From Paraspadella gotoi (Eukaryota > Animalia > Chaetognatha): a DNA stretch of 36,164 nt. The position numbers and the translations under genes were made by a program. How positions within the stretch are numbered: position 1 is the stretch's first letter; each line of letters starts with the position of its first letter. The DNA is taken from the NCBI GenBank assembly GCA_051294375.1, contig JBJCIZ010001037.1:1-36164 (forward strand). Reading direction: 5' to 3'. The notes under the pieces are model-generated. The model was not told the DNA's origin. It did not search any database and worked only from the letters and a program-made list of their open reading frames with translations. Positions 6,753 through 36,164 of this stretch are shown here, in pieces.

Positions 6753-7083
6753 CCAAGATTAGAGGCAATCACCCTATCACCAGGCTTTCTTTCCGCCGGC
6801 TCCCTCTTCCCCCTCTCAACTCCCCCCTCCTCCTCCTCCTCTCGTCCCTTCCTCCTCCCATCCCCTAGCGAGTGGACCGGGCTCTCCTCTCTCTCTGGAC
6901 GGCACTCACGGCGCCAAGGGCTACCAAGACCCGCGCGAATCCCTCTTTCGCTCTCTTCCTTTTTCCTTTGTAGTGTATTTGCTGTGGCCTATACCCCTTT
7001 TTATTATTACAATCTTACTTACCTCTTTTTACTTGGTTGAGAGGGTAGTCAGATCCTCTTTCTAGCCAGTTATTCTATCTTCA
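6753..7083 (+). repeat. 5' LTR of element 1
   Basis: CCAAGATTAGAGGC...GGACGGCACTCACGGCGCCAAGGGCTACCAAGACC...GCCAGTTATTCTATCTTCA is colinear with 27239-27564 and ends in CA. It could be 5'-truncated. Confidence 0.9.
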
Positions 7084-7086
7084 GAG

Positions 7087-10017: not shown

Positions 10018-10103
10018 TACGAATTTTTCTTTCGATCTCGCGAAACTTTCTTGCTCGTCTTCTCTCTCTCTTTCTCTTTTTTTTCTCATTTTCCTTGCCC
10101 GTT

Positions 10104-11314: not shown

Positions 11315-13534
11315 ATGGCAGGCAAGAGCGCTTCCTTGGAGGATCTAATGCAACATGAGGATGGTGCTGGTAGACTCTCTGCTAGGTCACGATCAAGAGA
11401 CTCTCTACAAAGCAGAACTGTGTCACTAAGGTCAAGATCCAGGGAAAGGAGTAGTGATAGAAAGAGATTTGAAGGACCCCAATTCATGGAACACAGAGAA
11501 GTGGTAAAGAGGTTTGAAACTGATGAATCAGATGACGAGGGGAACAAAAGCGATACCCCAGATGTTGAAGAACAATTTAGGGGAACACAAGACCAATTCA
11601 CAGTGTTCACACAGAGAATAGGTGATCTTGAAGATGAAAACAACACCCTTAAATCAGAAAACGACACCCTTCTGTCAGAAAAAGCCCAAACTCGCATAAA
11701 TATGGACACCCTTACATCGGAAAGAGACCAGACTGAACGCAAACTCCAGCATGCTGAAAGCGAGATTATAGGATACAGAGAGAAAAACACCGACCTCATA
11801 AGGGAAATCGCCCAGCTAAGAAATGCCCTGGAGGGACTAAAAACAAAAGAAACAACAAGGATAGCCTCTGAGGCTATGAAAGAGCTCAATCTAATTGACG
11901 ATGACCTTGATGAAAATTCTCAAAGGAGAACTTCACTACCCACTTCACAACACCCAGCAGCCCTCATCCCTCCTAAACTCCAAGAAGCTGCAAAACCCAA
12001 ACAAACAAAAAGGACAATCTCCAGCAGAGACGAACATCCAGCCAGTGCCCCAACATCCCCAAAAAGGCCAGAAAGTGCGACAGCATCACCACAAAGAAAG
12101 CGTACTGTTGAGGACCTTGACGAGGATCTACTGCTCCTCCGCCAGGAACTTTACAAACAAAGTGAAGCAAGAGAAAAGGAGAGAGAGGCCCGAGAAAGAG
12201 CAATGGAGCTACTGGAAATTGAAAGGAAGAAAAAGAGGGAGTATAAAGAAAGACTTCACAACCTCTCAGACATGATGAGTGGAATGACAGTAAGAAATAG
12301 AAGCAGTAGCCGCAGTGAAAGTGTAGCATCATCCAAGAATCGGTCAACAACAGGAAGCCACAAAGCGCTAATCTGCGATGAGGAGAACATTGAATCTGGG
12401 ATCTCAACACCGAGAGAAAATGGAGAAAATTCGAAAGTGAAAGGTAAACATTTCCCCAAACGCGATAAGTACACAGCCTTCAGCGAGTATTTTGCGGCTC
12501 TCAAAGAGAGTATAAGAAATTGCATTGGACAGGGTCACACCATGTCGCAGATTGCATGGGAGCTATACCTCCATGCACAGGACAGTAGCTATGGTGGTGA
12601 GTTCCTGCACCAGCTAAACCGATTAGGCCTAAGTGATAAAAAGAAAACAGTAGACGGAATACTTAAAGCCATAAAGATGTCAGATTTTGATCATCGATTT
12701 CTGAGCGCATGGGAGCGTTTTGCTCAGCTTAGTAAAACTGGATCTGAAGATGTAGCCGCCTGGATGAGACGCCTGGAGACAGCCTACGATGCGTGTGCCC
12801 ATGTCTTTGATGATGCCGAAGAGTTCAGATCCAGACGATCCCACGAAATTAAGAAACAATTCTTCAAAGGCGGGGATTTCCCAGAATGGATGGCAGCACA
12901 ACTTCGTCCTTTCCATGACCTTACTGAGCTAGTACTGAACTGCAGAACGCTTGTGACCAAAGAAAGGAACAATAAGCAAAGACAAACAACAAACAACACT
13001 GCTGCGCAGCAACCACAACAACAGCGACCTTTTCGATCCCGCAATCAGCAACAACGACCGCAACATTTCCAACCGCAGCAACATTTGCAACCGCAGCAAC
13101 AATTCCAACCGCAGCAACCGCAGCAGCCACTCCTGCCCCACACCCCACAACAATTCCAACCACAGCCCACCCAGCATCTGCAACCCCAAAGGCCAATCCA
13201 ACCACAACCACTCTTGCGGCAGCAACAACAACCACAGCATCAAGCACTTGCTGCAACAGTGGATCCATTTGTCCGGCCTGATGGATCAGTTTCATTTAGA
13301 CCAAAGAGAGCAGATCGAATCCCTGCACCACTCAATGCAGGAAGGATGCCACTTGATGGGGAACATGACCCAAACTTCAAAGGAAGAATGTGCCTACACT
13401 GCCGACAAATAAACAAACACCTATCAGGACACTGTGGATACCAAAATTTCTGCCTGCACTGCAATTTAGAAAATGAACACACCACTCCTCATTGTCCACT
13501 GAATCCACAACAACAACAACAAAACCAGATATGA
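11315..13534 (+). CDS. gag: Gag polyprotein, 739 aa
   Basis: N-terminal coiled coils; capsid-like motif FAQLSKTGSEDVAAWMRRLETAY; Q/P-rich tract; two knuckles CLHCRQINKHLSGHC and CLHCNLENEHTTPHC; lies directly upstream of pol. Confidence 0.92.
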   Translation: MAGKSASLEDLMQHEDGAGRLSARSRSRDSLQSRTVSLRSRSRERSSDRKRFEGPQFMEHREVVKRFETDESDDEGNKSDTPDVEEQFRGTQDQFTVFTQRIGDLEDENNTLKSENDTLLSEKAQTRINMDTLTSERDQTERKLQHAESEIIGYREKNTDLIREIAQLRNALEGLKTKETTRIASEAMKELNLIDDDLDENSQRRTSLPTSQHPAALIPPKLQEAAKPKQTKRTISSRDEHPASAPTSPKRPESATASPQRKRTVEDLDEDLLLLRQELYKQSEAREKEREARERAMELLEIERKKKREYKERLHNLSDMMSGMTVRNRSSSRSESVASSKNRSTTGSHKALICDEENIESGISTPRENGENSKVKGKHFPKRDKYTAFSEYFAALKESIRNCIGQGHTMSQIAWELYLHAQDSSYGGEFLHQLNRLGLSDKKKTVDGILKAIKMSDFDHRFLSAWERFAQLSKTGSEDVAAWMRRLETAYDACAHVFDDAEEFRSRRSHEIKKQFFKGGDFPEWMAAQLRPFHDLTELVLNCRTLVTKERNNKQRQTTNNTAAQQPQQQRPFRSRNQQQRPQHFQPQQHLQPQQQFQPQQPQQPLLPHTPQQFQPQPTQHLQPQRPIQPQPLLRQQQQPQHQALAATVDPFVRPDGSVSFRPKRADRIPAPLNAGRMPLDGEHDPNFKGRMCLHCRQINKHLSGHCGYQNFCLHCNLENEHTTPHCPLNPQQQQQNQI

Positions 13535-16500
13535 CAGGATACGACGCTCCCGGGCGAGGAACTACTGGAAACTCTCTGCATCTCCCTCACCTATGACCTG
13601 CCCCAATTGTTTCAAAATGGACCCACAGTGAAAAGCCTAATACTCTCCCATTTCAACAACCACCCCCACACTAACCCTGAACAGCAATACAAAAATGCAC
13701 TACTTGACCTCCCCGGTGGCGTCCTAATGGAATGTCTGGCCTCTGCCTTGGATGCCAGAATTGAGATTCTCCAAGAGAATCGCCTTGTATATAAATCTAA
13801 ATATGATGGAACTGATGAACTAACACTGGTATATAATAATGACCCACAATCACTCCTTTTCTCCCACATCAACTTTTCAACCCCACAAACCTTCCTTGAC
13901 AAACTAGCCACACCCCAGCCTATTGTACCTTTGATGCCTTTGCAATCTGCCCCTGTTCAGCCAATGATGACTCACACCTCTTTAGGTGCTACTGTAATAC
14001 CTTCCTCAACCTCTCCACACTCTCTGTCACCACATAGTGAATCTGACATCTCTAAACACACCAAAAAATCTGATATTGAAAATCTTCACCGCCTTGAAAA
14101 CCATGAAAACCATGTAAATTCAACGCTTCTCTCCCAAATCTCCCCATCAAATCTTACAACTGAAAATTTGCCAAAATGCTTTCGCCAATTGAATAATCTG
14201 AGACAAGAGACAAGAGACCTCCTTTTTCAAGCCATGGGACAGGGACCCACAACTGCTAAGGTGAAATCTATCCTTGATGATATCAAGGCAAAACAACAAA
14301 ATAAGAAAAGTACAACTCTTGAATGCATTCCTGAAAATGCAGCTGAGAGCCACCAGAGTGCACATGAACAATCCCTGGAGAATGAGACGGTGCCTAAATC
14401 AAACCCAACCACGACCAGGATCACAGATCAAGCTGCGCTTGTAGCATCAATAAACCATGACAAAGATGGCCGTTTTGGAGACAGGCTTCAAGACTACAAA
14501 ATCAAGGATCTTGTGGCCTTTTGGTTGCCTTCGTCCTACAATGAAGGAAACACAGTAAAACTGCAACAAATTCTTGATACAAAACAACAGAAATTTGGCC
14601 AACCCATGTATCTAGTTGGAATCTTTCCTAACAAAAGGGTGAGACCCATGACCATAGATACCGGGGCAACAACATCCATGATTAGCGAAACCATGGCCAA
14701 AGAACTGAACCTAACCTTCTTGAAACGTGACCCATGCAACATCCATACAGCAAATGGCCCAATAATCTCTGACAGAGTGGCAACATCGCTAGTAGACCTC
14801 ATCGTGGTTAAGGTCCGGATGGAATTCTTGGTCATTGACAATCCTAGCTATCCACATTCCTTCCTACTTGTGGGATCTTCCTTCCTCCGCTCCAACAACT
14901 TTATGCTAGACCAGGATTTCCTGACCCTCTCGGAATCAATCAAAATACCCTTAATGGCCGGCCTAAACAATGCCCAAAAACACATTGATATGATCCAGAG
15001 AGATTACATCTCGGTAGCTGGAGAGGGCCTTCGAATGTCAGGAAATAGATCAATCCCACCAAAGAAAAATATCACTATCAGCGTCCGTCTGGATGAAGCA
15101 AGTAGCAAAAAACATGCTGGGCTCTGCATCCACTTTGAGAATGGCATAAGGAACATGATTGGAGTCCACGCACTGGACATGCTAATCTCCAAAGATCACG
15201 ATTATCTACGAAACCCAGTTAATTTGGTTGTCCAAAATCGCACAGACAAAGAAGTGGTGATAAAGGATGGCACTTACCTAGGAACCTTAAGAACTGTTGT
15301 GGATGAACAGCTGAAAACAGAACTCCAACACTGCGCATCAGCACAAGTGTCAGCCCTGGTCACCAAATCAAAACATGGCAGAATTGCCGAAGCATGGAAC
15401 AATCTCGCCCATGAATCACAAAAGCACACTTGCTTCATTGGGCGATCAACGGATGACAAGGACCTGGAAGAAGGCGAAATACTTGATGATCTGGAGGATG
15501 GTGAAATTGAGGACTCCCAAGAAGAACATATTCCTGATGACGACATGGATTTAGGCGTAGAGGTCCCAATATGGCTGTCTGACAGACTGGATGAGATTGA
15601 CAGGGAAGATAGAGCAAACAAACCAATCGCTTCCAAAGAGACATCAATAATTGAGCGAAATGACAAGCCAAAACATGAAATTGATGCTGCAATCACAAAG
15701 GTTCAGCGTGACATGGAAAAATACTGGGACCAAAAAGGAAAAGAAAGCCTGCTAGAGAAAGTGGTCATTGGAAAAAGGCTGACGGATGAGCAAAGGCGCC
15801 GCTGTGAGGACCTAACTTGGGAGTATAGATGCATATTTGCTACTAACTTCCAACACGCTGAAGCAGGCATACGTGACTATGCAGTGGACATGGCTTATGA
15901 TCCTGATAAGGTTGTTGCAGCAAATCCACGACCCACTGGTGTCTTTCAAAAACAACTGCTCTCCCGCTATATTGATATACTACTGAGAGCAAATATCCTT
16001 GAGCCATCAAAATACTCTTCTGTCGCCAATGCCTTCGTGATTGAGAAAAAGAGCTGCAAGATTAGATCAATTGAGCAGTTATCTAATGCTTCAGATGAAG
16101 AAATCTCAGCAAACTTCCGCCTTGTAGCAGATCAATCACACCTGGGAAAAGCCATGAAACCTTTCTCAAGCTTCCTCATCACCATGCGAGAGATGATGAC
16201 CTTTATGGAGGCAAATGCCTTCTATGTTACAGCTGATTTCTCAAACTTCTTCTACCAGATCCCATTGTCAACCACATGCAGAGCCATAACCTCCATCTAT
16301 GGTGGGGATAACAAGTCTTATAACTTTCAGAGAGTGACTATGGGGTCCCGGCCTGCCTTTTCAACGGCATCTCGAGTTGTGGAACTAACCTTCAGAGACT
16401 GTTTCTCCGTAAATGAATACTTAAGTTATGCAGATAATTTTTCCTTGAAAGCATCAAGCGTGGATGAGAGCTTGGATCAATATCAAACCTTTTTGGCTCG

Positions 16501-19500
16501 ATGCAAACACCAGAACCTCTTACTCAAACCTGGTGAGCTCTTTGTAGCCATGAAGGTTGATGACAACAATGGCGCATTTCAATTCTTGGGATTTGAATTC
16601 AGAGAAGGCAAAATCTTTCCTGGAAAGAAGAAACTTGCAGACTTTTCCTCACGCCCACTACCAACAAGCCGGAAAAAGGTGCTGCAACTTGCCCAATCCC
16701 TGAATTTCTTCCGCACCTTTAGCCCAAGATTTGCTAATGAACAAAAACAACTTTATGATGAACTGGAGCGCCAAAGGCTTTCTACAAGCAAATTTAAACT
16801 TACGCCCAAGATGATCCAACATCTCCGTGAACTACTCCATTTAGTGATGGACAGCAACGGGCTACACCTTCTAGTAAAGGATGATATCCACAAAAGTGTG
16901 TTTCTCCTCTTCACAGATGCATCAGAACTCAGCTATGGGGCAGCACTGTTTACACTTCGAGAGGGGAAACTACTATGCCTCTACTCCGTCTCTAAATCTT
17001 TCCCTCGCCCACAAATGAAATACCACATTAATAGGAAAGAACTGTTAGGATTGTACAACGCCATGCAGCAGATGTCACTGTTTTTGAGGTTTCGTAAATT
17101 CTTTGTGGTCACGGACTCTGCTTCTGTCCACAGTTGGGCACGCACGCAGATTTCATCTTTGCCCACATCTGTTCGCACACCCCTGCTCTACATGAGAGAG
17201 ACCTTCTGTTTCAGAACAATCCTTTGCAAGTCAGGGGATCAGCTGGCAGACCTCCTCACCAGATATGTCAAACCTGAAACATCATATGAGCAGGTTGAAG
17301 ATACTCTATTCAAGCTACACCAAGGCCCAAAACCTGACCATCACCTGGACGTTACAACCTTGAATGAAACCTGTGCTGCAGAAATCCAGGGACACAATCA
17401 AGCTTTTATGGAAAATACTACCAGTGACCATATTGAAGATGTTATCACCGACTCAGCCAGGTCAAGTGACCAGACCTGCTACGCAGCCCCTCATGGTCTT
17501 GAAGAATTTGATCTTCAGGAGTCTAGTGAAGAACTGACAACATTAGAGCAATCTGACAGTGATACAGACTCTGACAAAGAGATCACAGCTTTTGTTGCAC
17601 CAGCTACTAAACCTAAAAAGCATGGACAGGGTCAGAAGCGACCACCAAGTGACTCTGAAGATGAAACAAAAGCCAGAAGATATCCACGCCGCTGCATTAA
17701 GCCCCCAGAGCAACATACCAAACTTGAAGACTCAGATGCTGATGATGAGTCCCAAACAAAACAGCATCCACGCCGCTGCACTTTACCAAAGAAACAAGTA
17801 GTAAAAGTTGCTGAAAAACCAAAAGATGCAACAATCGTGGCTGAGGTATGCAATCGGGAGGGCCAAAGCTCTAAGACAAAAGTTGATAACCCACTAGAGA
17901 TCCAAGTCTCCAGAGTAGATGGAAAATCCTTTCAGATAAATCTTGATTCAAATGGGAAAGCCTACCTCTTGGCCCCAATAGAAATCAGCAAATCACACCA
18001 AGCTGAGCCAGAGATTGAAACACCCGGAAGACTGCTGGGGACACAAAACCAGGAAGGAGTCGCAACTGGTCCAGAGGATACAACTCCGAAATGGTCTGAT
18101 GCCACTCTCATATCTGTGGACACGAACCACACTCACAAAGAACCACAGGATATTGGTTGCACATGCAGAGTTAAACCAAACCCCAGCAGAAGAATCGCTC
18201 CAGATTCCTTAGAGATAATACAAGAAGGTAACCCCACTGACTTTGAACCAACAGAAAGCATCCTTGAAGATGCCATTGCAGCCGCGGGAGCAGAAACCAA
18301 CCCTTGTCCCAAAGCTGAAGACATCACATCAGAAATTGAAAGAGCTCAGCAACTATGCTCTGATACCCAAGCAATGGTTGAAGTGATAAGAATGAATGAA
18401 TTGCCGGAACAGCATGTGGCACGAACAAGATCCCCTTATCTCAATCATCTCATGGAAATAAGACCAAATCTCAAAATCACTGGTACATCGCTCTTCTTCT
18501 GCAAACTCAATGATGATGGCTCAATTACAAACACAGTCGTAGTCCCTCCCACTAAAGCCCAAGAACTGGTGATGAAAATACATTTGGACCTGGCTCATGT
18601 CAATCCCTCCCGTCTAAGATGCTCCATCTCTCAAAAATACTACATTCACAAGCTTCATGAGGCCTGCACAAGATGCTTCAAGACATGCGAGAACTGCCGT
18701 TTGGCACAAAAAGCCAAATTGTCTAAAGGCAGAAAAGTCCAAATTTTTGACTCAGCTGTAGCCAACACCTTTCATGCAGACCTGCTACAGCTGGAGGAGA
18801 TCCATTCCTACAAATACCTCCTCGTCCTTGTAGATCTGTGTTCAAGGTATGTGATAGCTGACGCTCTCAAAGCAAAAACGGCTGAATCAGTGGCTGAGTC
18901 CATTAAAAACATATGCTTTACCTACCAGCTATGCATTAACAGAATAGAGACAGACTTAGGCAAAGAATTCAGGAACAGCCTCATAGACTCTCTCAAGACA
19001 CAGCTTGGCTTTAGTTGTGTCAGCCTAAGACCCTCTCAGAAAAACTCAAACTTAGCAGAGAAGGTCAATGCTACGATTGTGGACCTTTTCCGACGTCTTC
19101 AACCAACAGGGGAACCCTGGACAAGGACCTGGAAAATGGTGATCAGAGCAATCAACATTGCGCCCATCAAATACTCTGATGACCTAACTGTCTCTCCTTT
19201 CAAATTGTTCTATGGTCGAGAGCCTACTCTCCCAAACCTACCTGATGTGACCACAACCCCACCTCATGGAACCGATAATGACTATCAATTTGAAAAACTA
19301 ATCCGCCAAGACGGGCTTCTCCAACGCGTCTGTCAACTCCGCTGCCTTGAGACTCCACCAAGTCTAATTCTACTTGGCACCGATGACTATGAGGTGGGCG
19401 AGAAAATCTTAGTCTGGCGAAATTTCGTTGAAAAGGAAAAGACAACGAAAGTGAAATCTTTAGAATTCAAACTCATGCCAAAATACGAAACTGCCTTAGT

Positions 19501-19597
19501 AACAAAGAAAAATGGTGACCAGTACCTAGTTCAACCAACGGATGGATCAAAACAAAGAGTTGTCCACAGAAGAACAATGAAGAAAATTAAACAGTAA
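13535..19597 (+). CDS. pol: Pol polyprotein (aspartic protease, RT, RNase H, integrase), in frame with gag
   Basis: Frame open from 13535. Protease TIDTGATTS (~14657). RT FRLVAD, ADFSNFFYQIPL, YADN (16427), FLGF. RNase H LFTDAS, RKELLG, VTDS, LADLLTR. Integrase H-X4-H...CENC, HADLL, ETDLG, LAEKVN, with a GPY/F-like C-terminal module (YEVGEKILV...VVHRRTMK). Confidence 0.97.
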   Translation, partial: QDTTLPGEELLETLCISLTYDLPQLFQNGPTVKSLILSHFNNHPHTNPEQQYKNALLDLPGGVLMECLASALDARIEILQENRLVYKSKYDGTDELTLVYNNDPQSLLFSHINFSTPQTFLDKLATPQPIVPLMPLQSAPVQPMMTHTSLGATVIPSSTSPHSLSPHSESDISKHTKKSDIENLHRLENHENHVNSTLLSQISPSNLTTENLPKCFRQLNNLRQETRDLLFQAMGQGPTTAKVKSILDDIKAKQQNKKSTTLECIPENAAESHQSAHEQSLENETVPKSNPTTTRITDQAALVASINHDKDGRFGDRLQDYKIKDLVAFWLPSSYNEGNTVKLQQILDTKQQKFGQPMYLVGIFPNKRVRPMTIDTGATTSMISETMAKELNLTFLKRDPCNIHTANGPIISDRVATSLVDLIVVKVRMEFLVIDNPSYPHSFLLVGSSFLRSNNFMLDQDFLTLSESIKIPLMAGLNNAQKHIDMIQRDYISVAGEGLRMSGNRSIPPKKNITISVRLDEASSKKHAGLCIHFENGIRNMIGVHALDMLISKDHDYLRNPVNLVVQNRTDKEVVIKDGTYLGTLRTVVDEQLKTELQHCASAQVSALVTKSKHGRIAEAWNNLAHESQKHTCFIGRSTDDKDLEEGEILDDLEDGEIEDSQEEHIPDDDMDLGVEVPIWLSDRLDEIDREDRANKPIASKETSIIERNDKPKHEIDAAITKVQRDMEKYWDQKGKESLLEKVVIGKRLTDEQRRRCEDLTWEYRCIFATNFQHAEAGIRDYAVDMAYDPDKVVAANPRPTGVFQKQLLSRYIDILLRANILEPSKYSSVANAFVIEKKSCKIRSIEQLSNASDEEISANFRLVADQSHLGKAMKPFSSFLITMREMMTFMEANAFYVTADFSNFFYQIPLSTTCRAITSIYGGDNKSYNFQRVTMGSRPAFSTASRVVELTFRDCFSVNEYLSYADNFSLKASSVDESLDQYQTFLARCKHQNLLLKPGELFVAMKVDDNNGAFQFLGFEFREGKIFPGKKKLADFSSRPLPTSRKKVLQLAQSLNFFRTFSPRFANEQKQLYDELERQRLSTSKFKLTPKMIQHLRELLHLVMDSNGLHLLVKDDIHKSVFLLFTDASELSYGAALFTLREGKLLCLYSVSKSFPRPQMKYHINRKELLGLYNAMQQMSLFLRFRKFFVVTDSASVHSWARTQISSLPTSVRTPLLYMRETFCFRTILCKSGDQLADLLTRYVKPETSYEQVEDTLFKLHQGPKPDHHLDVTTLNETCAAEIQGHNQAFMENTTSDHIEDVITDSARSSDQTCYAAPHGLEEFDLQESSEELTTLEQSDSDTDSDKEITAFVAPATKPKKHGQGQKRPPSDSEDETKARRYPRRCIKPPEQHTKLEDSDADDESQTKQHPRRCTLPKKQVVKVAEKPKDATIVAEVCNREGQSSKTKVDNPLEIQVSRVDGKSFQINLDSNGKAYLLAPIEISKSHQAEPEIETPGRLLGTQNQEGVATGPEDTTPKWSDATLISVDTNHTHKEPQDIGCTCRVKPNPSRRIAPDSLEIIQEGNPTDFEPTESILEDAIAAAGAETNPCPKAEDITSEIERAQQLCSDTQAMVEVIRMNELPEQHVARTRSPYLNHLMEIRPNLKITGTSLFFCKLNDDGSITNTVVVPPTKAQELVMKIHLDLAHVNPSRLRCSISQKYYIHKLHEACTRCFKTCENCRLAQKAKLSKGRKVQIFDSAVANTFHADLLQLEEIHSYKYLLVLVDLCSRYVIADALKAKTAESVAESIKNICFTYQLCINRIETDLGKEFRNSLIDSLKTQLGFSCVSLRPSQKNSNLAEKVNATIVDLFRRLQPTGEPWTRTWKMVIRAINIAPIKYSDDLTVSPFKLFYGREPTLPNLPDVTTTPPHGTDNDYQFEKLIRQDGLLQRVCQLRCLETPPSLILLGTDDYEVGEKILVWRNFVEKEKTTKVKSLEFKLMPKYETALVTKKNGDQYLVQPTDGSKQRVVHRRTMKKIKQ

Positions 19598-21009
19598 AAC
19601 ACCTCTTAAACCGCGACCACGCCCTGTCTCTACCCCCCCCCTCACAATTCCCGTGGTGCAGTGGATCCCCGTGATCTCCAAATCGCTGAAAACACGTCCC
19701 GCCATCTGGAAACGCTGGACTGAAGCTAAGCGGCGTGGATCTGCCCTACGGATGGACCCCACTCTCTTCCTACCCATTATCCCAACTGTGCGGTGGCTTT
19801 CCAGGCCCTGGACCCTGGTGTGGCCAAACCAGAACCAGTGGCGCCGCCGCGCCTCGGCTAGCCAAACCCTACCCTTTTCTCCTTTTTCTCCAGTGAAAAT
19901 GAAATGTAATAAAAATACATCAACTAAAGGTGCTTTGTCCGCCTCTTCAACTAAAGGTGCTTTATCCACACTATTACGTCATACACGCTCCAGGACCCTA
20001 AAAATTGGGCCAACATTTTATGCTCTTATTTTTTTTCTCGTTCTTTTAATCCTTATCTCTTTCCACTCCCCAAATTAGTATTGACTCAATGCGCGGGCCG
20101 CGGTATATCAAAGTATATTCTCTCTAGACATTTGATTATCCTTCTATCAATTGCTGTCGTGTTCTTTGGACAACTGTTAACCATCCTGTAAAAACTAGTT
20201 CTGGTCAAAACATTCCGATTTTAAGTAATAAATTCTTTATCCAGAAAACAGAAAAAAAATACAACAAAATCGACCACTGCTTTAATTTTTATTATCCTTT
20301 CTCTCCTTTCATCCTTTTCCCTCTCCACCTACATATTTTACCTTTGCCTTAACTTTTCTCCGTTTCTTTTATTCTATTTTTGTTCACCTTCCCTTTTTTT
20401 TTCTCTATCCTACTCTCCTTCCCTTTTTTTCCCTTCTTTACCTTTTTTTCCTTTTCTTTATTTTATTTTCTTCTTTACCTTTTCTTTTCCTTTATTTTCC
20501 TTTCTTTACCTTTTCCTCCTCCTTTCTTTTTTCCATCCTACTTTCCAGTTTTTAAACCTAATTTATTTTCACCACCCAACTCTGTACTGCTTATCGAAAT
20601 ATTCTTTACTAAAATATTATTCACAGGAAGCAGACTCGACTCATCGCCGAACTCATGTTTACCTCGCCGTCTTTACTCTCAGTCCAATTATAAGTGAAAA
20701 CCGAAATCTTTTTTTTCTCTTTTCTTTCATCTATCGAACTCACCTATTCTGTTTCAACTCTCAACTTTGTCACTCGTACTCCTTAATAAGTAATTTGATA
20801 GCCCTCGATTCTCCATCTGCTCAAAACAAATCACATCTATTACTATGACTCAAAATTCAAAACTTTCTTTTATTCACTTTGCAATACAAAAATTAATAAC
20901 ACAATATGATACTCTTTACAAACTACATAATAATTTTTTTTTCTCGTTGATATGATGCTCCTTATGCACTACTTATTCATTTTCGTTGTCACTGTCCAAA
21001 CTGTCCAAT

Positions 21010-21367
21010 TCAAATTCCCCTCGAAACCAATCTGGGACGCGGTGTGAACAGAGGAGAAGATATTGATGTTGAAGTAGCCTTGGGCAGAGCGATGTCTTGT
21101 ACAGACGATGACGTAGCCTTGGGCAAGGGGATTTCCTGTACAGATCGTCCAGTGTATGTCACGAAAGACTTTCCCAATTCTAACTCAGATGGGCTGGTCT
21201 GAGAATTATCTTCGATTTCAGTGGACGAGGTGTCCAGCTCTCCATAAACACCCAGCAGAGGCATGCCCCATCCCTGATCTTCATGACTGTGATGGAACTC
21301 TTGCGGAACCACAAGCTGCTGCATCCTTGGGAAGACCTCCGTGTTATTGTGAGGCCAGCGCATCCGC
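21010..21367 (-). CDS. Antisense spliced gene, exon 3 (terminal), unknown protein
   Basis: Acceptor TTTATTCAG immediately 5' on the minus strand; phase 2 joins exon 2 in frame; ends with TGA at 21012-21010; minus-strand AATAAA at 20874-20869. Confidence 0.65.
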
Positions 21368-21780
21368 CTGAATAAATATAAAATTAAAAATTAAAGCACT
21401 AAAATAAATAAAACTAAATTAAAACGACTAAAAATTAAAAATCATTAAAGTTAAAATAAATAACTTACTAGAACGTATATCCTTCTTTCACTAAAATCTA
21501 CACCTCACCCAACTGATTATTCACCTTTTCTCTCTCCCTCCTTTCCTCTATCTTTCTTTCTCCCTCTCTCCTCCTTTCTCCCTCTCTTTCGCTATCTCTA
21601 TCTCTTTCTCTCGATTCCTCTTTACCTCTCCCATCCCCCCTTTTTTTCTCCCCCTCTCTCCCTTCCTATTCTCCCTTCCTATTTCTCTCCCCTATCTCTT
21701 CCTCTCCATCTCTCTATCTTCCTCTCTCCCTCCCTCTATGACCCCCCCTCCATCCTCCCTCCCCCTACCCTCTTACTTAC

Positions 21781-22026
21781 ACTGGAAAAGCGGTAGCTAC
21801 GTAGGGCCTGTCCCTCCTCCCTAATGTGTTCCGGCGCACATGAGCGCCAAGATAAATCCGTGAAACACCATCGTCAGGCACCCGAACGAGGCCCTGGCCT
21901 TCAAGGACAACTGGGCTGCCAGGAACCCCATGCTGATGATGGTAGACAATGCCTGCAGAGCCTTGGCCATTTTCAACGGCAGTTTCGGGCCCAGTGAATC
22001 GAGCCCCAGGAACAGCCTCGTTCAAT
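21781..22026 (-). CDS. Antisense spliced gene, exon 2
   Basis: Acceptor CTTTTACAG and donor GTAAGT at 21780. The only open frame is the one required by the phase-2 end of exon 1. GC-richer island between CT tracts. Confidence 0.72.
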
Positions 22027-22109
22027 CTGTAAAAGTTTCAATTGACTCAAATTAAATTAATGAGATCTTATTCTCTACCCCCCCCCACCCCGTCAATTTC
22101 TGTTCTCGT

Positions 22110-22800
22110 TCTCTCTCCATTTCACCTTTCCCCTACTCCTCCCTCTCCCTTCCTCTCTCTCTCTATCTATCTTTTTCTCTATCTCTCCCTCTCTTTTTCT
22201 CTCCTCTCTTTCTCTCTATCTCTCCCTCTCTTTTTCTCTCTCTCCTTTCCTCTCTCCTTCACGCTCTCTCTCGGTATTGACTCTTTCCTTCTTTCACTCC
22301 TCTTCTTTCTCTCTCTCTCTCTCTCCTCTCTCTCTCCCTCCCTCTTACTCTCTCTCCTTTTCTCTCTCCTTCACACTTTCTCTCGGTCCTTAACTCTTTC
22401 ACTCCTCTCCCCTCTCTCTTTCTTTCTTTCTCTCCCTCTCTTTCTCTCTCTCTCCTTTCCTCTCTCCTTCACGCTTTCTCTCGGTATTGACTCTTTGTCT
22501 CCTTCACTCTCTCTCTCTTCCCCTTAACTTTTTCTTTCTTCCGCTCCTCCTCCCTCTCTCTCTCTCTCTTCTTCTCTCTCTTTCCCTTTAACTCTTTCTT
22601 TCTTCCGCTCCTCTTCTACTCTCTCTCCTTCTCTCTCTCTATCTCTCCCTCCCTCTTACTCTCTCTCCTTTTTCTCTCTCCTTCACGCATTCTCTCGGTC
22701 CTTAACTCTTTCTCTCTTTCATTCCTCTTCCCTCTACCTCTCTCTCCTTCTCTCTCTCTCTCTGTATCTCTACCTCTCTCTCTCCCTCTCCTTCTTTCGA
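22110..22800. repeat. (CT)n-rich tract with internal duplications (antisense intron 1)
   Basis: CT runs; CTCTCGGTATTGACTCTTT and CTCTCGGTCCTTAACTCTTT each occur twice. Confidence 0.9.
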
Positions 22801-22892
22801 CCCTTAACCTTTAACCCTTAATGCTCGAGTAAAACAACAACAAAAATTTAACTAAAAGCAAACAAAAACGAAAATTACGAAACAAAACTTAC

Positions 22893-23326
22893 ATTTCAAT
22901 CTGGGTCTCCAGCCATGACATCACTGGGAACCAAGCGGCGCCCTTCCTTGATGCCTCACGCATCAGGGTCCCTCGTTGGAGACACCAGGTATAGAGTGGG
23001 ATGCGTGGAAGGCCCATGTCCACGTAACCCTCATCGATTTCCATCATGACGAGGGCCCCGTTAAGTTCCATGTTGTTGGTTGTCCCACCGGCACCGAAGC
23101 GCCGCAAGAGGTACTGCTGAACTCCAGGCAGTGAGACCCCAACATTGGGAAACTCCTTCTTGTCGAATATCTGGCCGGTGTTTCCCCGGGTAGCAGAGAG
23201 TAACGAGTTGGATAGCCTTCGTTTGTTATCCCTGGTCAGTGACATCCTTTTTCCTTTTTTCTCTGCACAAGGGCGCCACGAGGATCCGTTTCCAGAGCAC
23301 CTTTTCCTTTTGTTCGGATTTTCCAT
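22893..23326 (-). CDS. Antisense spliced gene, exon 1
   Basis: CAAAATGG start context at 23326; NLS-like PNKRKR; frame open to the donor AT|GTAAGT at 22892. Confidence 0.72.
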
Positions 23327-23929
23327 TTTGAAGATTATCTCCCTTCACTTTTCAATTGGCATTAAAACATTTCTCCTTCTTCTTCCCCTTTATTTCTCTT
23401 GCAAAAAAAAAAAAGGTTTTTTTTTGTTGCTTTTTGTTGCCTTTTTTTTGTTTTCTTCTTTTTAAAGTTGAAAAATTTGAAGGATGAGAATTGAAGGTTG
23501 TCTCTTTCAGGTTGACGTGGGTAATCCGTTCAGTTCTTAAATAGAAATTGTTGTTCTCCTTTGAAATTTTTTTTCTTTTCGCCGTTTACCTTTTTATTCA
23601 TCTTTTTATTTTTTTTTTTTCTCTCATTTTGTTCTTCCTTGTTCTTTTATCTTTCGGTTGATTTCCAAATGGGCACGATGAAAAGACGAAAACATCCACA
23701 AAAAAAAAAACAAATGAAAATAAAATAGGTGAAACCATACCGAGATGAGCGGCAAAACTAAGAGGATAAAAGCCCTCCCCCTCCTCATCATCACCTTACC
23801 CGTGAGACGATCACATGACCTGCGCAAAAACAAAAGGGGACATCGCGATCGCATAAAATCTCGACCATGATAGCGATGGCTATCAACACATAAAGTTAGA
23901 CAGTCTCAGTTAGCCAAATTTTTTTTTCA

Positions 23930-24262
23930 CCCTCCCCTACTCTTTTCCTCTCTCTCCCTCTCTCTCCCTCTCTCTCTTTCTCCATCTCCCTCTCTCTTTC
24001 TCCGTCTCTTTCTTTCCATCTCTTCCTTCTCCCTTTCACTCTCTCCTCTCTTTCTCTCTCTTTCCCCACTTAAATATATTTTTTTTCCTCTTTCTCTTTC
24101 TTTCTTGAATCTCAACCTCCCCTCTTTCTCCCTCTCTCTTCCCCACTTCACCTTTTCTCTCTCTCTCACTCTCTCTCCATCTCCCGTTCTATCCCTCGCT
24201 CTCCCCCACTTAATATCCCCTTTTTTATTCTTTCATTCTCTCTCTTCCTCTTTCTCTCCCCC
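23930..24262. repeat. (CT)n-rich tract
   Basis: Directly visible CT runs. Confidence 0.9.
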
Positions 24263-24782
24263 CGGTTGAAAAGACAAAAGAAAATGCGTAAAGAAATAAT
24301 AATAATAAAATCTATAATTAAACAAAACGGGAAATATTATAAAATCAATGGAATGCATAAAAACTGCCCCTTACTCTTACTGTACAAAGTAGAAGTGTTT
24401 TCTTTCTTTTACAACGATTTTTATTGGTTATTACAAACAGTTTCGACTCGAAAATTTGAGTCCTTTTCAGCGCAAAAGAGCTCCTTACTCTTAATTTGAC
24501 CTTTTTATTGATTTATATGATTTTTTTTCTCTCTCTTTTTCATCTAAATTTTTTTTTTTTCCTTCTTTTTTTCTTTGAAATTTGACTTCTATTTTTAGAC
24601 ATTGCATATTTCTTGTTGCCTTGCCACGTATGCCTTTTTCTCCCAAATACCCCATCCAAGAGACAGACTCATTGACTTGACTGACACCCCCCCTCCCCCC
24701 CCTCAGCCCCCGACTCCAGGTTCAGTCAATCCAAAGGAACCAAAAGAGATTCGAGATTTGAGCCAAAGTGAATAAACCCAAG

Positions 24783-25841
24783 ATGAACCTGCTCCTGATC
24801 CTCACCGCTGCAGTCGTCGCCGCCGCTCTTCCCCCGTCTGTGGGACAAAAACTTTATGGATTTGACTGCTATGATCCGAGGACGAAAATCCTCCTCTCTG
24901 TCCCTTTCAAACAACTGAAACTGAATTACGGAACAAAATTCACGGCGACTGCGTTTAATGAACAATTCAGAGCCGCATGGAATGCAGATTGGATATATTT
25001 CCATCTGCACCATGAAGGATTTGTGGTACTATCGGAAGTGGACCCCGGCGCGCCACGCGGCCTTGTCGCCGCCATGATGGATGGAAAAGCACACCTGCTT
25101 CAATGCCACTACACCGAAGTCCACCCTGTGGAAAATGATGATGAATGCTTCGCTGACAAACTCGTGGAACTCCCGTCCGGCGCCAGGCGTTTCTTCGACA
25201 ATACTTCTGCCATCCTCGTCACCCACGGCAGAAAAGTGGAGTGCGGCCAGAAGACTCCCAAGGATCATGATGACTCCACCATTTCCAAAATTGCTGATGC
25301 CCTTGACGACGCCATGCTCTCACGAATGGCGATGTCCATCCTAGCAAGAGGTATCTTCAAGGGAGAGTTCGACGAGGACGTCACCAAGTTATTCAACCCC
25401 GATTCCATCCTGAAGCTCATTGAACTTGAGGAATTCGAATCAGACCACATCCTCAGCTCAATAGCCACCAAGATCAGGATGCTTTGGCCTAAGATAACTG
25501 TGGCTTACGTCACAGTCTACACCATCATCGCCATTGTCATTGTGTCGCTCGCCTTCTCCCGGGGAATCTCCCCTCTGAAGTGCTTTGCCTTAGTATTCTC
25601 GGTCTGCAAAATCTTAGTAGACTACGACAAATATCTTAAAGAGACGCAACTGCAAGAAAAGGCAGCACTTTATGAGGAGATTCCCAAGGAACCGCGCCAA
25701 GTACCTGAAGAGATAGTGGGCAACATCCTTGACTGCCTAAACAATATCCTCAATCGCATCGAAGACATTGAGGAAAGGCTTGAGCTCATGGATAATCGAC
25801 CGCCACCAGGGCGACGTGGGGTGAGGTCAACGCAACTCTAA
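24783..25841 (+). CDS. env: Env-like type I membrane protein, 352 aa, with chuvirus/gB (class III) glycoprotein-like motifs
   Basis: Signal peptide MNLLLILTAAVVAAA; YGFDC; GKAHLLQCHYTEV...ECFADKLVELPSGARRFFDNTSAILVTHGRKVEC; transmembrane segment ITVAYVTVYTIIAIVIVSLAF; C-terminal heptads; located between pol and the 3' LTR. Confidence 0.85.
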   Translation: MNLLLILTAAVVAAALPPSVGQKLYGFDCYDPRTKILLSVPFKQLKLNYGTKFTATAFNEQFRAAWNADWIYFHLHHEGFVVLSEVDPGAPRGLVAAMMDGKAHLLQCHYTEVHPVENDDECFADKLVELPSGARRFFDNTSAILVTHGRKVECGQKTPKDHDDSTISKIADALDDAMLSRMAMSILARGIFKGEFDEDVTKLFNPDSILKLIELEEFESDHILSSIATKIRMLWPKITVAYVTVYTIIAIVIVSLAFSRGISPLKCFALVFSVCKILVDYDKYLKETQLQEKAALYEEIPKEPRQVPEEIVGNILDCLNNILNRIEDIEERLELMDNRPPPGRRGVRSTQL

Positions 25842-27238: not shown

Positions 27239-27564
27239 ACAAGATAGAGGCTCATCCTATCACCAGGGCCTTCTCTCTCCCGCCGGGCTTCCTCTTCCCC
27301 TCTCAACGTCCCCCTCCTCCTCCTCCTCTCGTCGCCTCCTCCTCCTCATCCCTGGGAGTGCATCGGGCTCCCTCTCTCTTGGACGGCACTCACGGCGCAA
27401 GGGCTACCAAGACCGCGCGATCTCCTTCTCCTCTCTCTCCTTTTCCTTTGTAGTATTTTGCTGTGGCCTTAACCCCTTTTTATTATTACATAATTTACCT
27501 TATTTACCTCTTTTACTTGTGAGAGGGTAGTCAGATCCTATTCTAGCCAGTTATTCTATCTTCA
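27239..27564 (+). repeat. 3' LTR of element 1
   Basis: Colinear with 6753-7083; subterminal inverted repeat AAGATAGA/TCTATCTT; ends in CA. Confidence 0.9.
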
Positions 27565-27566
27565 GA

Positions 27567-27884
27567 GGAAAACTTCCATTTTTGGACGAGTTAGTCCAAA
27601 AAATATGAAAAAAAAAAATAAAACTTCTGTCTACCGAAAACCAACAGCGACAAAGGTGACTGAAACCGCAATCCTGTCACCATCTAAAATGTCCACATAT
27701 CGACACTCAAGGGTGAGCTTTGTCGTGCCAAAAGATTATGCTCTTCAACGGAATTGTTGGAAAAAGACAAAAATCTTATCCTAGACAAAGACGAAGACAA
27801 TGGCCATAATAGAAAGACTTTACAAAAAGTTACTGAGGAATACCATCCATCAGAAAAAGTAATTTTCAAGGCAGAAAGTCGGTA
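27567..27884 (+). pseudogene. Penelope-like element reverse transcriptase C-terminal fragment
   Basis: GKLPFLD at 27567, TSVYRKPT at ~27623-27646, then STLKGELCRAKRLCSSTELLEK...NGH. These are typical PLE RT/thumb motifs in the right order, with frameshifts. Confidence 0.85.
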
Positions 27885-28415: not shown

Positions 28416-29791
28416 TTTTAGTCGGATCTACTTATCAGCAGATCCCGACTCTATAATTCACTTTGTCGGTTTGTCGGTCCGCCCCTCAATATTGTCGGGC
28501 ACCAAATTATATCATGTCAGAACATCGAATTATGATAAATTATGCCAAAAAATGATGTTCGTCCGTCCGTCTGTCCGTCCACCTTAGCAAAAAAACACCA
28601 ATTACTCGTGATTGGATGGATGGATTTGAATGAAATTTTGTGTGTGGGAAGGGAAGTGTGTGATTGAGCTGGATATAAAGTTTCGATGGAATCGTCTGAG
28701 TGGAAATGAGTTTAAATGGAAAAAAACAAAAAACCTGTTTCACTAATTGATTATGATTTTGTTCCCTTTTATATTGAATGTATATGCAGGATGTATTAAT
28801 AAATCAAATAATTAATCAGTTAATTAATCAATTAGTCAATTAATTAATCATTAATTAATTAATCAGTCAATCAATCGTCCATCCATCCCACCTTAGCAAA
28901 AAGCCCCAATAACTCGAGATTGGCTGGTTGATCGGAATGAAATTTTGTGTATGGGTAGGAACATGTGTGATTTAAGCTGGATTTAAAGTTTCGACGGAAT
29001 CGTGTGAGTGGATATGAGTTTAAATGGAAAAAACATAAGTCGCATTTACTAAAATCTTTTTACTTATTTTAACCAATAAATATACTCTAATTAATCATAA
29101 TTGGATGGATAGATTGAGTTCAAATTTTGTGTGTGGGTAAGAAAATGTGTGACGAAGCTTGATATAAAGTTTTGGTACGAGTGGAAATGAGTTTAAATGA
29201 AAAAAATATGAGTCACATTTACTTGACTCTTTTTACTTATTTTAACCCATAATAGATTGAGATGAAATTTTGTGAGCGGGAAGGAAAGTTGGTGAAGAAG
29301 CTAGATATAAGTTTTGACGGAATTGTGCCAGTGGAAATGAGTTTAAATGAAAAAATATAAGTCACATTTACTTTAAGGACATCGATGATGATAAGCTGTA
29401 TTCCCCGATCTAATACTTTAAGGGAGTTGTCTTTTCATACAATTGAAACATTCTTTGAATATTATACCACTTCATTGATAGGGAAGCCAGGTACTTTGGG
29501 AGTGAATAAACGAGACTGTGAGAGAGTCTTGATTGGAAGCTTGCAGGGACCTGCTATGTCATTATCTTGTAAGAGTGATGGAGGCCTTAAACCACCAAAG
29601 CCTGTCCAAAGTCAGGGGCAAGATAGCTTATTTATTAAATGAATGGATAATTTTTATATTGGTTTGTACAATTTCATAAATTTATAATTAATTATTAAAT
29701 ATTAAAATTAATTAATTAATTAATTGATTTATTAATTGATTAATTAATTAATTTCGTAGGCAGATCCGACATTGTTTGCTCAAACTTGTTT
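28416..29791 (+). mobile_element. DINE-1/HINE-like non-autonomous Helentron derivative
   Basis: T-run then subterminal IR GTCGGATCTACTTA (28421); adjacent partial IR CAGATCCCGAC; (GTCY)n at ~28465 and 28560; four copies of a TGAAATTTTGTG...GAGTGGAAATGAGTTTAAATG core; 3' subTIR TAGGCAGATCCGAC (29757-29770); short palindrome GTTTGCTCAAAC; then T's. Confidence 0.8.
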
Positions 29792-30404: not shown

Positions 30405-32223
30405 ATGGCAAAACTGCTCGGAATTGGTGAGAAGGGGGCCAGCAAAGATGCGATACCGCCGCTGCAACCCACCGCACCGGCCGGAAGAAAAACGCAAGAC
30501 ACTACGCAAGGCTTGGTGGGGGCCTACTTGGATAGGCGAACGGGAATGGTCGTCTATCACGACGGCAGGACCGAACCCTACCAATCAATGGACGACTTGA
30601 CGGCCGGGCTTGACAAGATCAAGCTTGTCGATGACGAAGAGGGCGCCGCCACCAACGGACCAACGGACAGCAGCGGCAAACCACACCTTCTAAACCTAGA
30701 CGAGAATCTGAGAAGGATCGCGGAAGGAAAGAAAGGCAACATGGGCGCCGCAATTACCGAGATGTTGGCCTTGATAAACGATAACAAGGTAGAGTTCCGC
30801 CGCGCCGCAGCGGAATCACGCCAAGCGGCCGCAGAGACCAGGGCTCTCGCCCGAAAGATGACCGACTTAGCACAAGCGGTAGAAGAACTGGCAACGACAC
30901 CAAGGGAAGAAGGCCCTGACGCCTACGCGCCGGAGGACCGCGGAAGGAGCACATCCGCAGGCAGAAACGCCGGAGGAGCAGGCCCGCGCTCGATTTCAGC
31001 GAACCCGCTCTCACGCGCGCCGATTAAGATGGACAGGCGGCGCGAAGGTGAAAAACCAATGGAGTTCTTGAGAGGCATCTACAGGAACATCAAGAATTGC
31101 GATTTCGAAGAGAGGCGGGTGAACGAGCAACTACAAGCCGTCCTCGCGCGCGACGAGGAAGCAAATTGGTACATCGACCCCATAGGCGGCAGCCTATGGA
31201 AAGGCCTCGAAGCGATGTGCAAAGAATCGTCGGTCACGGCGGCAGAAATAGCCGAAAAGATAGTGGTGAAAGTGGACCCAAAGGAACACTCCGAATACGG
31301 ACTCCCACTAGTAAATTCCATCTACAAAAAATTCGACTGCGTCGCACCGGAAGAACGTGACGCAGTCTCGCGCCATGTCGCCCGCTTACTAACGAAAGCG
31401 CTAGACCCGTACGCTCCTGGCATCTCGAGAGAAGTCCTCAAATTCAGAAACCTCATCGACACGGGAAACACGCCGGGAACTAGGAAAGGAAATAGAGTGG
31501 ATCCTGCGGGGTTGGCTCGAAACTTACGGATAACAAATCGGAAGGCACCGCCCGCCGCTTCATAAATTCTGTAAAGGAGAACGACCGTCAAATCCTCACG
31601 GACTCGCTCCTGAAGAAGGACTGAGCGACAAAAACCCCGCCGAAAGCGCGAACGCCCTATATCAAGGAGCAATGATGCAGGAAGCAAACAACACCCGTGA
31701 GCTCATGGAGAAGCTCACCAAAAGCATGTCGGCGATCCAAAAGGCCGTCGAAACCAAGAAGGACGACGGAAAATGGAGAGGACGCCAACCCAGAGACACT
31801 AGACGCCCCGAATGGCGCGACAGACGCGACGGGGGAGGCGACAGACGCTGGCAGGGCAGGCAAACCCGCACGGACAAAAATTTCCGAAGAGATAGATTTG
31901 AATTTAGACGCAGAGACGCAGTTGTAACTGATGAATTAGATGATGTGCAAACCACTAATAAAGCTTTCGAAAATTACAATTGCTCATTATTACCATATCC
32001 AAAGTCAGAAAAAGGTAAACCCCCAGAGAGGGTGAAAGCGGCGAAGCTAGCGAACGACGCCGCTGACAGAATCAAAAACGCTGCAAGGAAATGGCAACCG
32101 TCTGACGCCCTAGCGAGATTCGCCGACTGCGCGAAAACAGCAATCAAATTCAAGGGAAAAGACGCAGCAGCTAGGCTGTACAAGCTTTTTGCCCCGCTAG
32201 GGTTAGAGACAGACACCTGTTAG
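30405..32223 (+). pseudogene. gag: gag-like region of element 2, broken into ORFs 30405-31565 and 31672-32223
   Basis: Position after the PBS; coiled coil; capsid-like RRREGEKPMEFLRGIY; Arg-rich basic segment; interrupted by frameshifts or stops. Confidence 0.65.
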
Positions 32224-32564
32224 CAACAGCGATAGTCAAAGAATCGGAGGTCCCTTGGAAAAACATTCTCAGTGAAAGACAAATTTGCACATGTCAAACG
32301 CTTAAAAGCATGCGAAAAACTCTGTAAGAAGGCGGCGAACCGTGGAAACGGTAGGCGAAGAGAAGCAACGCCTCCGCCGCAAACGACGGCGCAAGATAAA
32401 ACAGGCAAACAGGAGCAAGGCAAAGCCAAGACAAGACTTAGAACGTTCGTAGAATTCAGCGGGGCAAAATCAAGGAAAATGGTTTACAACCCTACCTACA
32501 CAATCATTGGAACGAACCAAGGCGAATCCTTGCACCAGGAGACGATCAGAAAGATCGAGCAAAG

Positions 32565-35500: not shown

Positions 35501-36164
35501 AAGCGGGCTGTAAATACGAAAAGGTATACGGCGGAGGAAAGGAAAGAGAAATAAGAATCTTCAGGACAACTACAGGCCAAGCATCGCTGATCAGCGACAC
35601 CGAAAGAAAAATCAGAACGGTCAGACACCTAGTAGACGGACCCCGCACAAACAACGAAATATTAAATATCGGCCTAGAACACAGAATCGAAGAAGAAAGA
35701 GCTTACCGCAGACGAGTGCCTAGAGCCAGATTGGCACCGGCACCAATAATGAGACCATCAGCAATGCTGCCCGCCGACACCATAAGGATTAGCCAAGATC
35801 TCCACACGAGGCCTGCAATCAAAACAGGAGAAGGATACCCGGACCGCCTTGGAAGCACAACCGAGGTAGATAGAGACGAGGCGGCTCCACCAAATTCAGA
35901 GATAACAGAAACAGGCCCCGACGGTGGAAGCAAGAGAGGTCAAGGAGAAACACTCCGGAACCAACCGAGCAAAGGAGGGCGGGACCCCCATCCCAGGACG
36001 AACGGCCGCCAGAGAGGGTAGCGGCCCCACCAAACTCACCAGATGAAAACGAACAGAGCAACTAGCAGATCCCAGGATCAGGCAGAAACAAACGAAGCAG
36101 ATGGAAACCGGAACTCACCGGAGCCCATATTCCAGGAGCCGATACCACGCCCTCAGGACGCGGG
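32565..36164 (+). pseudogene. pol: pol of element 2 with many frameshifts (decay or sequencing error)
   Basis: LHDTGASIN (~32787); WRLICDLSAVNK (~33963); KLPMG (~34171); LIYVDDLI (~34269); ILGF; YADAS (~34729); VTDS; KSGDNPADFLTRF (~35056-35094). Integrase is not reached within the window. Confidence 0.9.

Follow-up and report, generated by a model that had tools for sequence, protein, structure and literature searches.

Organization of the mini-env locus

The window, i.e. the whole stretch of 36,164 nucleotides of Paraspadella gotoi DNA that was analyzed, carries on the same strand ORF1, a pol gene and, downstream of both, a short glycoprotein gene that is designated mini-env in the following (Table 1). 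The mini-env frame runs from ATG to TAA over 352 codons, is intact as read from the sequence and is preceded by an in-frame stop seven codons 5' of the ATG. It resides in a GC-richer island (0.525) inside CT-rich low-complexity DNA, and the T-rich tract upstream of it may provide the splice acceptor from which a subgenomic env mRNA would be made. The polyprotein encoded by pol yielded Pfam matches to RT_RNaseH, rve and Integrase_H2C2, and its best PDB match was the Ty3 RT (4ol8, E 7.7e-15); a weak, sub-threshold match to Peptidase_A17 (Pao) was also seen over the RNase H region. By these matches, pol is classified as Ty3/gypsy-like, not BEL/Pao. ORF1 had no match in the PDB. Its codon usage resembles that of pol (RSCU r 0.74), and it is a possible gag. 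A 330-bp direct repeat, which occurs only twice in the window, brackets ORF1, pol and mini-env.

Table 1. Features of the mini-env locus (positions within the window)
Feature	Position	Strand	Basis or remark
Upstream 330-bp direct repeat, candidate 5' LTR	6754..7086	+	85% identical to 27240-27567
ORF1, 739 aa, coiled-coil-rich	11315..13534	+	weak coiled-coil Pfam families only
Protease-RT-RNase H-integrase polyprotein (pol), 1956 aa, Ty3/gypsy-like	13727..19597	+	Pfam; PDB match
Spacer between pol and env, CT-rich low-complexity	19598..24782		no recognisable coding remnant
T-rich tract with terminal AG, 185 nt 5' of ATG	24521..24598	+	read from sequence
mini-env ORF (P0001)	24783..25841	+	352 aa plus stop; phmmer relatives; unchanged in run X1 contig
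Predicted signal peptide, residues 1-22	24783..24848	+	hydropathy; N-terminal hydrophobic stretch also in complete relatives
YGFDC motif with the first conserved cysteine, residues 25-29	24855..24869	+	conserved in alignment
Variable membrane-distal subdomain, residues 30-92	24870..25058	+	occupies place of class III fusion/PH domains
Conserved three-cysteine module, beta-rich, residues 93-159	25059..25259	+	homologous to PF24664 profile ~364-441
Helical stem / membrane-proximal region, residues 165-235	25275..25487	+	LF..S...L...EE motif in alignments A2, A3
Transmembrane helix, residues 238-260	25494..25562	+	hydropathy; position conserved in relatives
Cytoplasmic tail, residues 261-352	25563..25838	+	juxtamembrane K...D.K.Y motif; heptad helix
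Tail heptad helix, residues 309-337	25707..25793	+	heptad test; AlphaFold helix
Downstream 330-bp direct repeat, candidate 3' LTR	27240..27567	+	purine run AAGAGAGGGG just before

Features of the mini-env protein

The sequence-only reading had described an intact frame with a YGFDC motif, a long cysteine motif, a TM helix and a coiled-coil tail, and all of these are indeed present. Residues 1–22 are hydrophobic, with Kyte-Doolittle means over 19 residues of up to 2.1. The single membrane span at residues ~238–260 reaches 2.43 on the same scale. The signal peptide and TM calls, which were made from hydropathy and from conservation in relatives, predict a type I topology with signal peptide, single TM and cytoplasmic tail. 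Four cysteines are found in the ectodomain (residues 29, 108, 122 and 154), and the protein has one N-x-S/T site (N140). The long cysteine motif, which covers residues 93–154 and reads GLVAAMMDGKAHLLQCHYTEV-x7-ECF...LVELPSG..RFF..T.AIL..HG.KVEC, starts 63 residues after YGFDC. In the tail helix, all a and d heptad positions are occupied by I, L, V or M, and in a shuffle test of this segment (residues 309–337) merely 2 of 5000 shuffles were equally good.

Public sequencing runs of the same organism were also inspected. One contig of run X1 contains the mini-env ORF unchanged, while the sole contig of run X5 across the site carries GATC inserted behind position 25262, which shifts the frame after approximately residue 160 and reflects either a polymorphism or a second copy. 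Within runs X1, X2 and X5, whose contigs are short, neither a joint nor a diverged mini-env copy of at least 85% likeness was found.

Mini-env belongs to a family of uniformly short proteins

When 1.84 billion representative proteins were searched with mini-env by phmmer, 13 relatives were obtained at E ≤ 1e-3 (E 7e-21 to 9e-4), four of them at E ≤ 1e-10. None of the 13 has a length of 600–700 aa, i.e. there is no relative of the size of chuvirus G among them. The relatives with a signal peptide measure 349, 388, 396, 412 and 420 aa, and the complete relatives range from 345 aa (P0058, a complete member of the P0009 cluster) to 420 aa. Exceptions are P0002 (467 aa), which has 148 additional residues in front of the conserved motif, and P0012 (558 aa), in which the extra length is a long charged tail. 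Lengths within clusters are likewise uniform: among the members listed, 13 of 15 in cluster 5 have 411–413 aa and 11 of 15 in cluster 6 have 420 aa. The relatives exist as many near-identical copies on separate contigs.

Further searches added little. Word-based homolog searches with mini-env alone, at near and at longer lengths, gave no match, and a word-based search with alignment A2 retrieved two close relatives only (P0014 and P0015). Scans of IMG/VR with P0001, P0011, P0013 and P0002 detected no relative. A metagenome scan with P0021 detected one contig, L001 (JGI, 1811 nt), which carries a short glycoprotein ORF at 65–1306, directly followed, within 1300–1811, by a DnaJ-domain ORF (PF00226, E 8e-8, above cut-off) and by the beginning of a second J-domain ORF, of which the start only is on the contig. 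The ORFs overlap the preceding stops (ATG..TAG, ATGA) and the strand is A-rich; judged by this layout, the contig is a compact virus-like array and not a cellular gene context.

In alignment A3, which comprises 20 rows, the first conserved cysteine, [YF/I/V]-[DN]-C, is present in all 14 rows covering the site, and 16 of 16 rows have the other three ectodomain cysteines. Between the first and the second of the conserved cysteines lie 65–95 aa in each of the 14 rows, and these rows stand for ten distinct lineages. The stem motif LF..S...L...EE and the juxtamembrane motif K...D.K.Y are conserved in the family, with E217 and K276 nearly invariant (A2, A3), and so are the tail heptads. Stem, juxtamembrane motif and tail heptads are the best conserved parts of the protein, and the tip (residues 30–92) is the least conserved one. 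The members are only 18–30% identical to mini-env, yet they have a uniform architecture. From these alignments, the short form is a conserved architecture of the family, and a private deletion is excluded because every complete relative found is short. Full-length env genes in sister copies had been named beforehand as the outcome that would reveal a private deletion; the length comparison across the 13 phmmer relatives gave the opposite, all complete ones being short.

Mini-env could also be a decaying remnant, in which a full-length env suffered a private internal deletion and stayed open by chance without having a function. The old-looking context of the element, with repeats of 85% identity and a long low-complexity spacer, would fit such a history, and so would the existence of the frameshift allele in X5. 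However, ten distinct lineages share the short architecture, the four cysteines, the stem motifs and the tail, and mini-env has retained each family-conserved residue that was checked (C29, C108, C122, C154, E217 and K276). We therefore regard decay as very improbable.

Mini-env is related to class III glycoproteins and lacks space for the fusion and PH domains

On its own, mini-env matches the Pfam profile PF24664 (Monjiviricetes_fusion) weakly (E 0.0076; 14.7 bits at a cut-off of 27), with residues 94–159 aligned to positions 369–432 of 653; 3 of 46 neighboring frames scanned gave unrelated Pfam matches of comparable strength. The profile is also matched by 8 of the 13 relatives, all of them at positions ~364–441 of 653, which corresponds to a slice of ~65 residues, and three relatives exceed the gathering score of 27 (28.6, 29.9 and 30.3 bits). 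The match extends over no more than ~12% of the profile. The five relatives without a match are three C-terminal fragments missing the module, plus P0003 and P0009. Protein-language features of mini-env point to the same family: the top cluster consists of PF24664 viral glycoproteins (0.93; 192 of 256 features shared), the second one is a eukaryotic PF24664 cluster (374 aa), and the ectodomain alone gave 0.85, which is taken as a lead. No relevant match emerged from phmmer and profile searches of PDB sequences.

In chuviral glycoproteins, a YDC motif lies near the start and the long cysteine motif follows several hundred residues later; the corresponding disulfide bridge of HSV-1 gB spans ~450 residues. 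In the mini-env family, only 65–95 residues separate the first two cysteines, and profile positions 1–363 of PF24664 are unmatched in mini-env and in the relatives. A fusion domain with hydrophobic fusion loops is absent, and by the same spacing and the same unmatched profile positions a PH-like domain is absent as well. Nor do separate pieces of such a protein lie nearby: no other piece of PF24664 or of the family was found in the 46 of 97 flanking frames scanned (at least 45 aa; low-complexity frames left out), and a family-profile search of all 699 six-frame segments of the window (at least 30 aa) detected no further fragment of either.

A predicted structure of mini-env was obtained with AlphaFold2 from the 20-row alignment A3. 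This model has a mean pLDDT of 66, with 75–86 over most of residues 21–150, as compared to 35 when the single sequence was used. It begins with two strands at the N-terminus, continues with short helices and a beta-rich module (residues 94–146), and is completed by stem helices (166–193 and 206–217), the TM helix and tail helices, of which helix 309–337 has a pLDDT of about 80. The conserved module (residues 93–159) was modeled with pLDDT 79–86, while residues 30–92 contain only short strands and helices (pLDDT 42–83). As a possible counterpart of the long central helix of class III proteins, which makes up the trimeric core (domain III of gB), this model of moderate confidence offers in front of the beta module a helix of 11 residues only (68–78).

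In a Foldseek search of BFVD, the model retrieved 14 viral proteins at E ≤ 1e-3 (best E 1.9e-5, probability 0.99), all of them 499–749 aa long. Negative-strand RNA viruses, i.e. chu-, qin-, rhabdo-like, xinmo- and bornaviruses, account for twelve of them, all named as glycoproteins; two are unnamed, and no unrelated named family occurs among the 14. Against the PDB, nothing was obtained at E ≤ 1e-3; the top row was domain IV of pseudorabies gB, the 'crown' (5ys2; E 0.019, probability 0.66), and the rows after it were chains of HSV-1 gB. VIA-align placed model residues 22–160 onto the N-terminal strand of HSV-1 gB plus residues up to ~640. An equivalence of the conserved module to the gB crown is only suggested by these comparisons.

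Homology of mini-env to Monjiviricetes-type class III glycoproteins is well supported because the PF24664 matches of the relatives and the BFVD matches of the predicted model concur. Mini-env shares with the Monjiviricetes/Jingchuvirales glycoproteins (PF24664; class III fusogens of about 500–750 aa) the type I topology and the three-cysteine beta module at profile positions ~364–441, and its predicted structure matches such proteins with E values down to 2e-5. In contrast to them, it has no counterpart to ~270–290 profile positions in front of the module and, with 352 aa, no fusion and PH domains, whereas the matched BFVD proteins have 499–749 aa. That the resemblance is spurious and the family an unrelated membrane protein is in our view highly unlikely: a significant PDB match is missing, the Pfam match of mini-env itself is sub-threshold and the model is of moderate confidence, but three relatives pass the curated Pfam cut-off, eight match the same slice of the profile, the 14 BFVD matches at E ≤ 1e-3 include no unrelated named family and the protein-language features point to PF24664, too.

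The sequence-only reading, which had seen in mini-env a relative of chuvirus-type class III glycoproteins devoid of the fusion-loop domains, is borne out in both respects, namely by PF24664 in 8 of 13 relatives together with the 14 BFVD matches, and by the lack of room in the 65–95 aa cysteine spacing with profile positions 1–363 unmatched. The Foldseek comparison that it had proposed gave matches to viral glycoproteins in BFVD (best E 1.9e-5) and none to gB in the PDB at E ≤ 1e-3. For the designation as 'crown/stalk of gB', the evidence at the PDB level is weak, with gB domain IV as top row at E 0.019.

Relationship of mini-env to the upstream element

Mini-env had also been placed in a gypsy rather than in a Pao element. 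The pol is indeed Ty3-like (4ol8), but mini-env lies 5.2 kb away from it, and its linkage to the upstream gag-pol is plausible, no firmer. A class III (gB-type, chuvirus-like) env beside a Ty3/gypsy pol has already been published for 'errantiviruses' (Chary & Hayashi, eLife 2026; PMC13524379). In that article, a chuvirus-like G adjoins gypsy pol in 114 arthropod elements, and the gB-type ENVs described there comprise five domains (I–V) and possess fusion loops (PMC13524379). Like the HSV/gB-type ENV genes of errantiviruses, mini-env is a class III-related glycoprotein gene on the strand of a Ty3/gypsy-like pol, and the proteins have signal peptide, TM and cysteine bridges in common. Mini-env differs from the ENVs described there by the lack of domains I and II, and its surroundings differ by the 5.2 kb gap and by repeats of 85% identity as compared to the LTR criterion of >99% given there (PMC13524379).

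A chuvirus glycoprotein is further known from Anakin, a BEL/Pao element, and solo glycoprotein EVEs are known from mosquitoes (Dezordi et al. 2020; PMC7642597). The present case resembles these in that a chuvirus-type glycoprotein resides in a host genome, together with a retroelement or alone. It differs from Anakin in the neighboring pol, which is Ty3-like here and not Pao, and from the mosquito EVE glycoproteins in that the latter are fragments of variable size (39–659 aa) and not a conserved short architecture (PMC7642597).

Measured against near-identical LTRs (>99%) and a pol-env distance of ~1–3 kb, the repeats at the present locus are 85% identical and the gap amounts to 5186 nt. A simple LTR pair is further disfavored because the repeats have no TG..CA ends, no TSD was detected, and the satellite on the left does not continue on the right-hand side. 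GC3 is 0.58 in env and 0.43 in pol, and the codon usage of env is also unlike that of pol and ORF1. In favor of a common element are the shared strand, the position of mini-env downstream of ORF1 and pol, the bracketing of all three ORFs by the repeats, the purine run before the 3' copy and the compact multi-ORF surroundings of the relative on L001. We lean towards assigning mini-env to the upstream Ty3/gypsy-like element, albeit not by much.

The competing explanation, which we consider unlikely, is that of an endogenous viral glycoprotein gene, solo or domesticated, that has no connection to gag-pol and is kept by the host, for instance because its product interferes with a receptor or acts in restriction. 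Vertebrate hosts are known to keep truncated ERV env genes for such purposes. Several features of the locus are compatible with this, i.e. the 5.2 kb between mini-env and pol, the differences in GC3 and codon usage to pol and ORF1, the location in a GC-rich island with an own ATG and signal peptide, and the divergence of the flanking repeats, which at 85% identity is too high for a young LTR pair. Such a role has moreover been proposed for solo chuvirus glycoproteins (PMC7642597). On the other hand, run X5 assembles the frameshifted form only, which would be surprising if the gene were fixed in the host. The relative on L001 is part of a compact array of overlapping ORFs with J-domain ORFs, which is a non-cellular context, and the relatives occur in many near-identical copies on separate contigs, as mobile elements do.

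Proposed role and origin of the short form

We consider it probable that mini-env encodes a membrane glycoprotein of a conserved family, which shares one three-cysteine module of ~65 residues with the class III fusion glycoproteins of chu-, borna- and rhabdo-like viruses and has no space for their fusion and PH domains, and which likely is the env-type gene of the upstream element. The protein is predicted to form an oligomeric spike stump made up of a variable tip, the conserved module, a helical stem, the membrane anchor and a coiled-coil tail. The module would correspond to the membrane-distal 'crown/lateral' domain, and the protein would not be expected to enter a target membrane in the way class III fusogens do. 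We infer that mini-env may couple an internal particle to the membrane and present a fast-evolving binding surface, because stem, juxtamembrane motif and tail are the most conserved parts and the tip is the most variable one, and because two relatives add N-terminal domains. Mini-env would accordingly act in envelopment or egress and as an attachment factor, not as an autonomous fusogen. The sequence-only reading had suggested an adhesin, a superinfection-exclusion factor or a dominant-negative env as putative roles.

A functional analogy may be drawn to the VSV 'G-stem', consisting of stem, TM and tail, which reportedly supports budding and potentiates fusion (work attributed to Robison & Whitt 2000 and Jeetendra et al. 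2002). In both cases a class III glycoprotein is cut down to membrane-proximal parts with a role in particle assembly, proposed in the case of mini-env, and the likeness is to be read as one of function only. The G-stem is a laboratory construct, whereas the mini-env family is natural and has in addition the beta module and the variable tip.

As to its origin, the short form may have arisen when the inner domains were lost. In class III proteins the domains are nested within one another, as is evident from the structures of gB and VSV G. Alternatively, the short form could be ancestral or independent, i.e. an outer scaffold of N-terminal strand, presumably disulfide-tied beta module, stem, anchor and tail that later received the PH and fusion domains, or a protein that acquired the module only; the family would then, at a similarly low probability, be a surviving relative of a pre-fusogen scaffold that gave rise to class III fusogens by nesting of these two domains. 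The family keeps only the outermost layers of the nested order, and its architecture is uniform across members that are 18–30% identical to mini-env. There is no full-length protein among the phmmer relatives, and the family has therefore not split off recently from any of the full-length lineages sampled. However, the carriers look like derived mobile elements, a nested insert can be lost in one event without structural difficulty, and the BFVD matches are ordinary full-length viral G proteins. An ancestral or independent short form thus appears quite unlikely to us, and loss of the inner domains is the preferred reading.

To our knowledge, class III fusion proteins, comprising herpes gB, rhabdovirus G, baculovirus gp64, chuvirus G and the gB-type retrotransposon envelopes, have always been described as five-domain machines. 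What appears to be new is the conserved fusion-less form, which was not found in the literature searched, with few subscription journals among it; class III env genes in BEL/Pao and Ty3/gypsy elements were already known. The family would show either that the outer part can be selected without fusion, for envelopment, attachment or interference, or that the class was built by domain insertion, and if the scaffold reading were true, one of the three viral fusion protein classes would be represented here by a pre-fusogen state that is functional. Elements like that of mini-env may be missed because surveys discard 'truncated' env genes or require env within 1–3 kb of pol. Such a blind spot is apparent in PMC13524379: heavily truncated ENVs were removed in that survey, and pol-env gaps above ~1–3 kb were outside of its search.

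Additional observations

Sequence in front of the [YF]DC motif is present in two relatives, i.e. P0002 (residues 1–148) and P0011 (residues 1–105). The extension of P0002 looks Ig-like, with a faint match to Ig_4 (E 0.24), and it may be an added binding domain.

Positions 30405–36164 of the window contain a second retroelement on the + strand, which is A-rich, runs off the end of the window and is split into several ORFs, with a protease at 32685–33380 and an RNase H at 34780–35280. It shows no tblastn similarity to ORF1 and pol of the first element at E ≤ 1e-3 and holds no member of the short glycoprotein family.

An AT-rich satellite with a period of ~535 bp and a GC content of ~0.28 fills positions 1–6750 and ends exactly where the upstream 330-bp repeat starts; it was not seen to resume after the right-hand repeat. 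Just downstream of the candidate 3' LTR, positions 28579–29373 form an imperfect tandem array with units of ~150–300 bp and 72–86% identity between matching stretches. A tandem duplication of 114–116 bp (9790–10019; 96–98% identity) lies in the CT-rich DNA that separates ORF1 from the upstream repeat.

At 1956 aa, the pol ORF is of unusual length. It has two acidic/serine-rich linkers, of ~420 residues between protease and RT (pol residues 389–812) and of ~470 residues between RNase H and integrase (1140–1605). The linker DNA contains a 42-nt imperfect repeat (17655 and 17739), which encodes the motifs ...HPRRC... and ...YPRRC....
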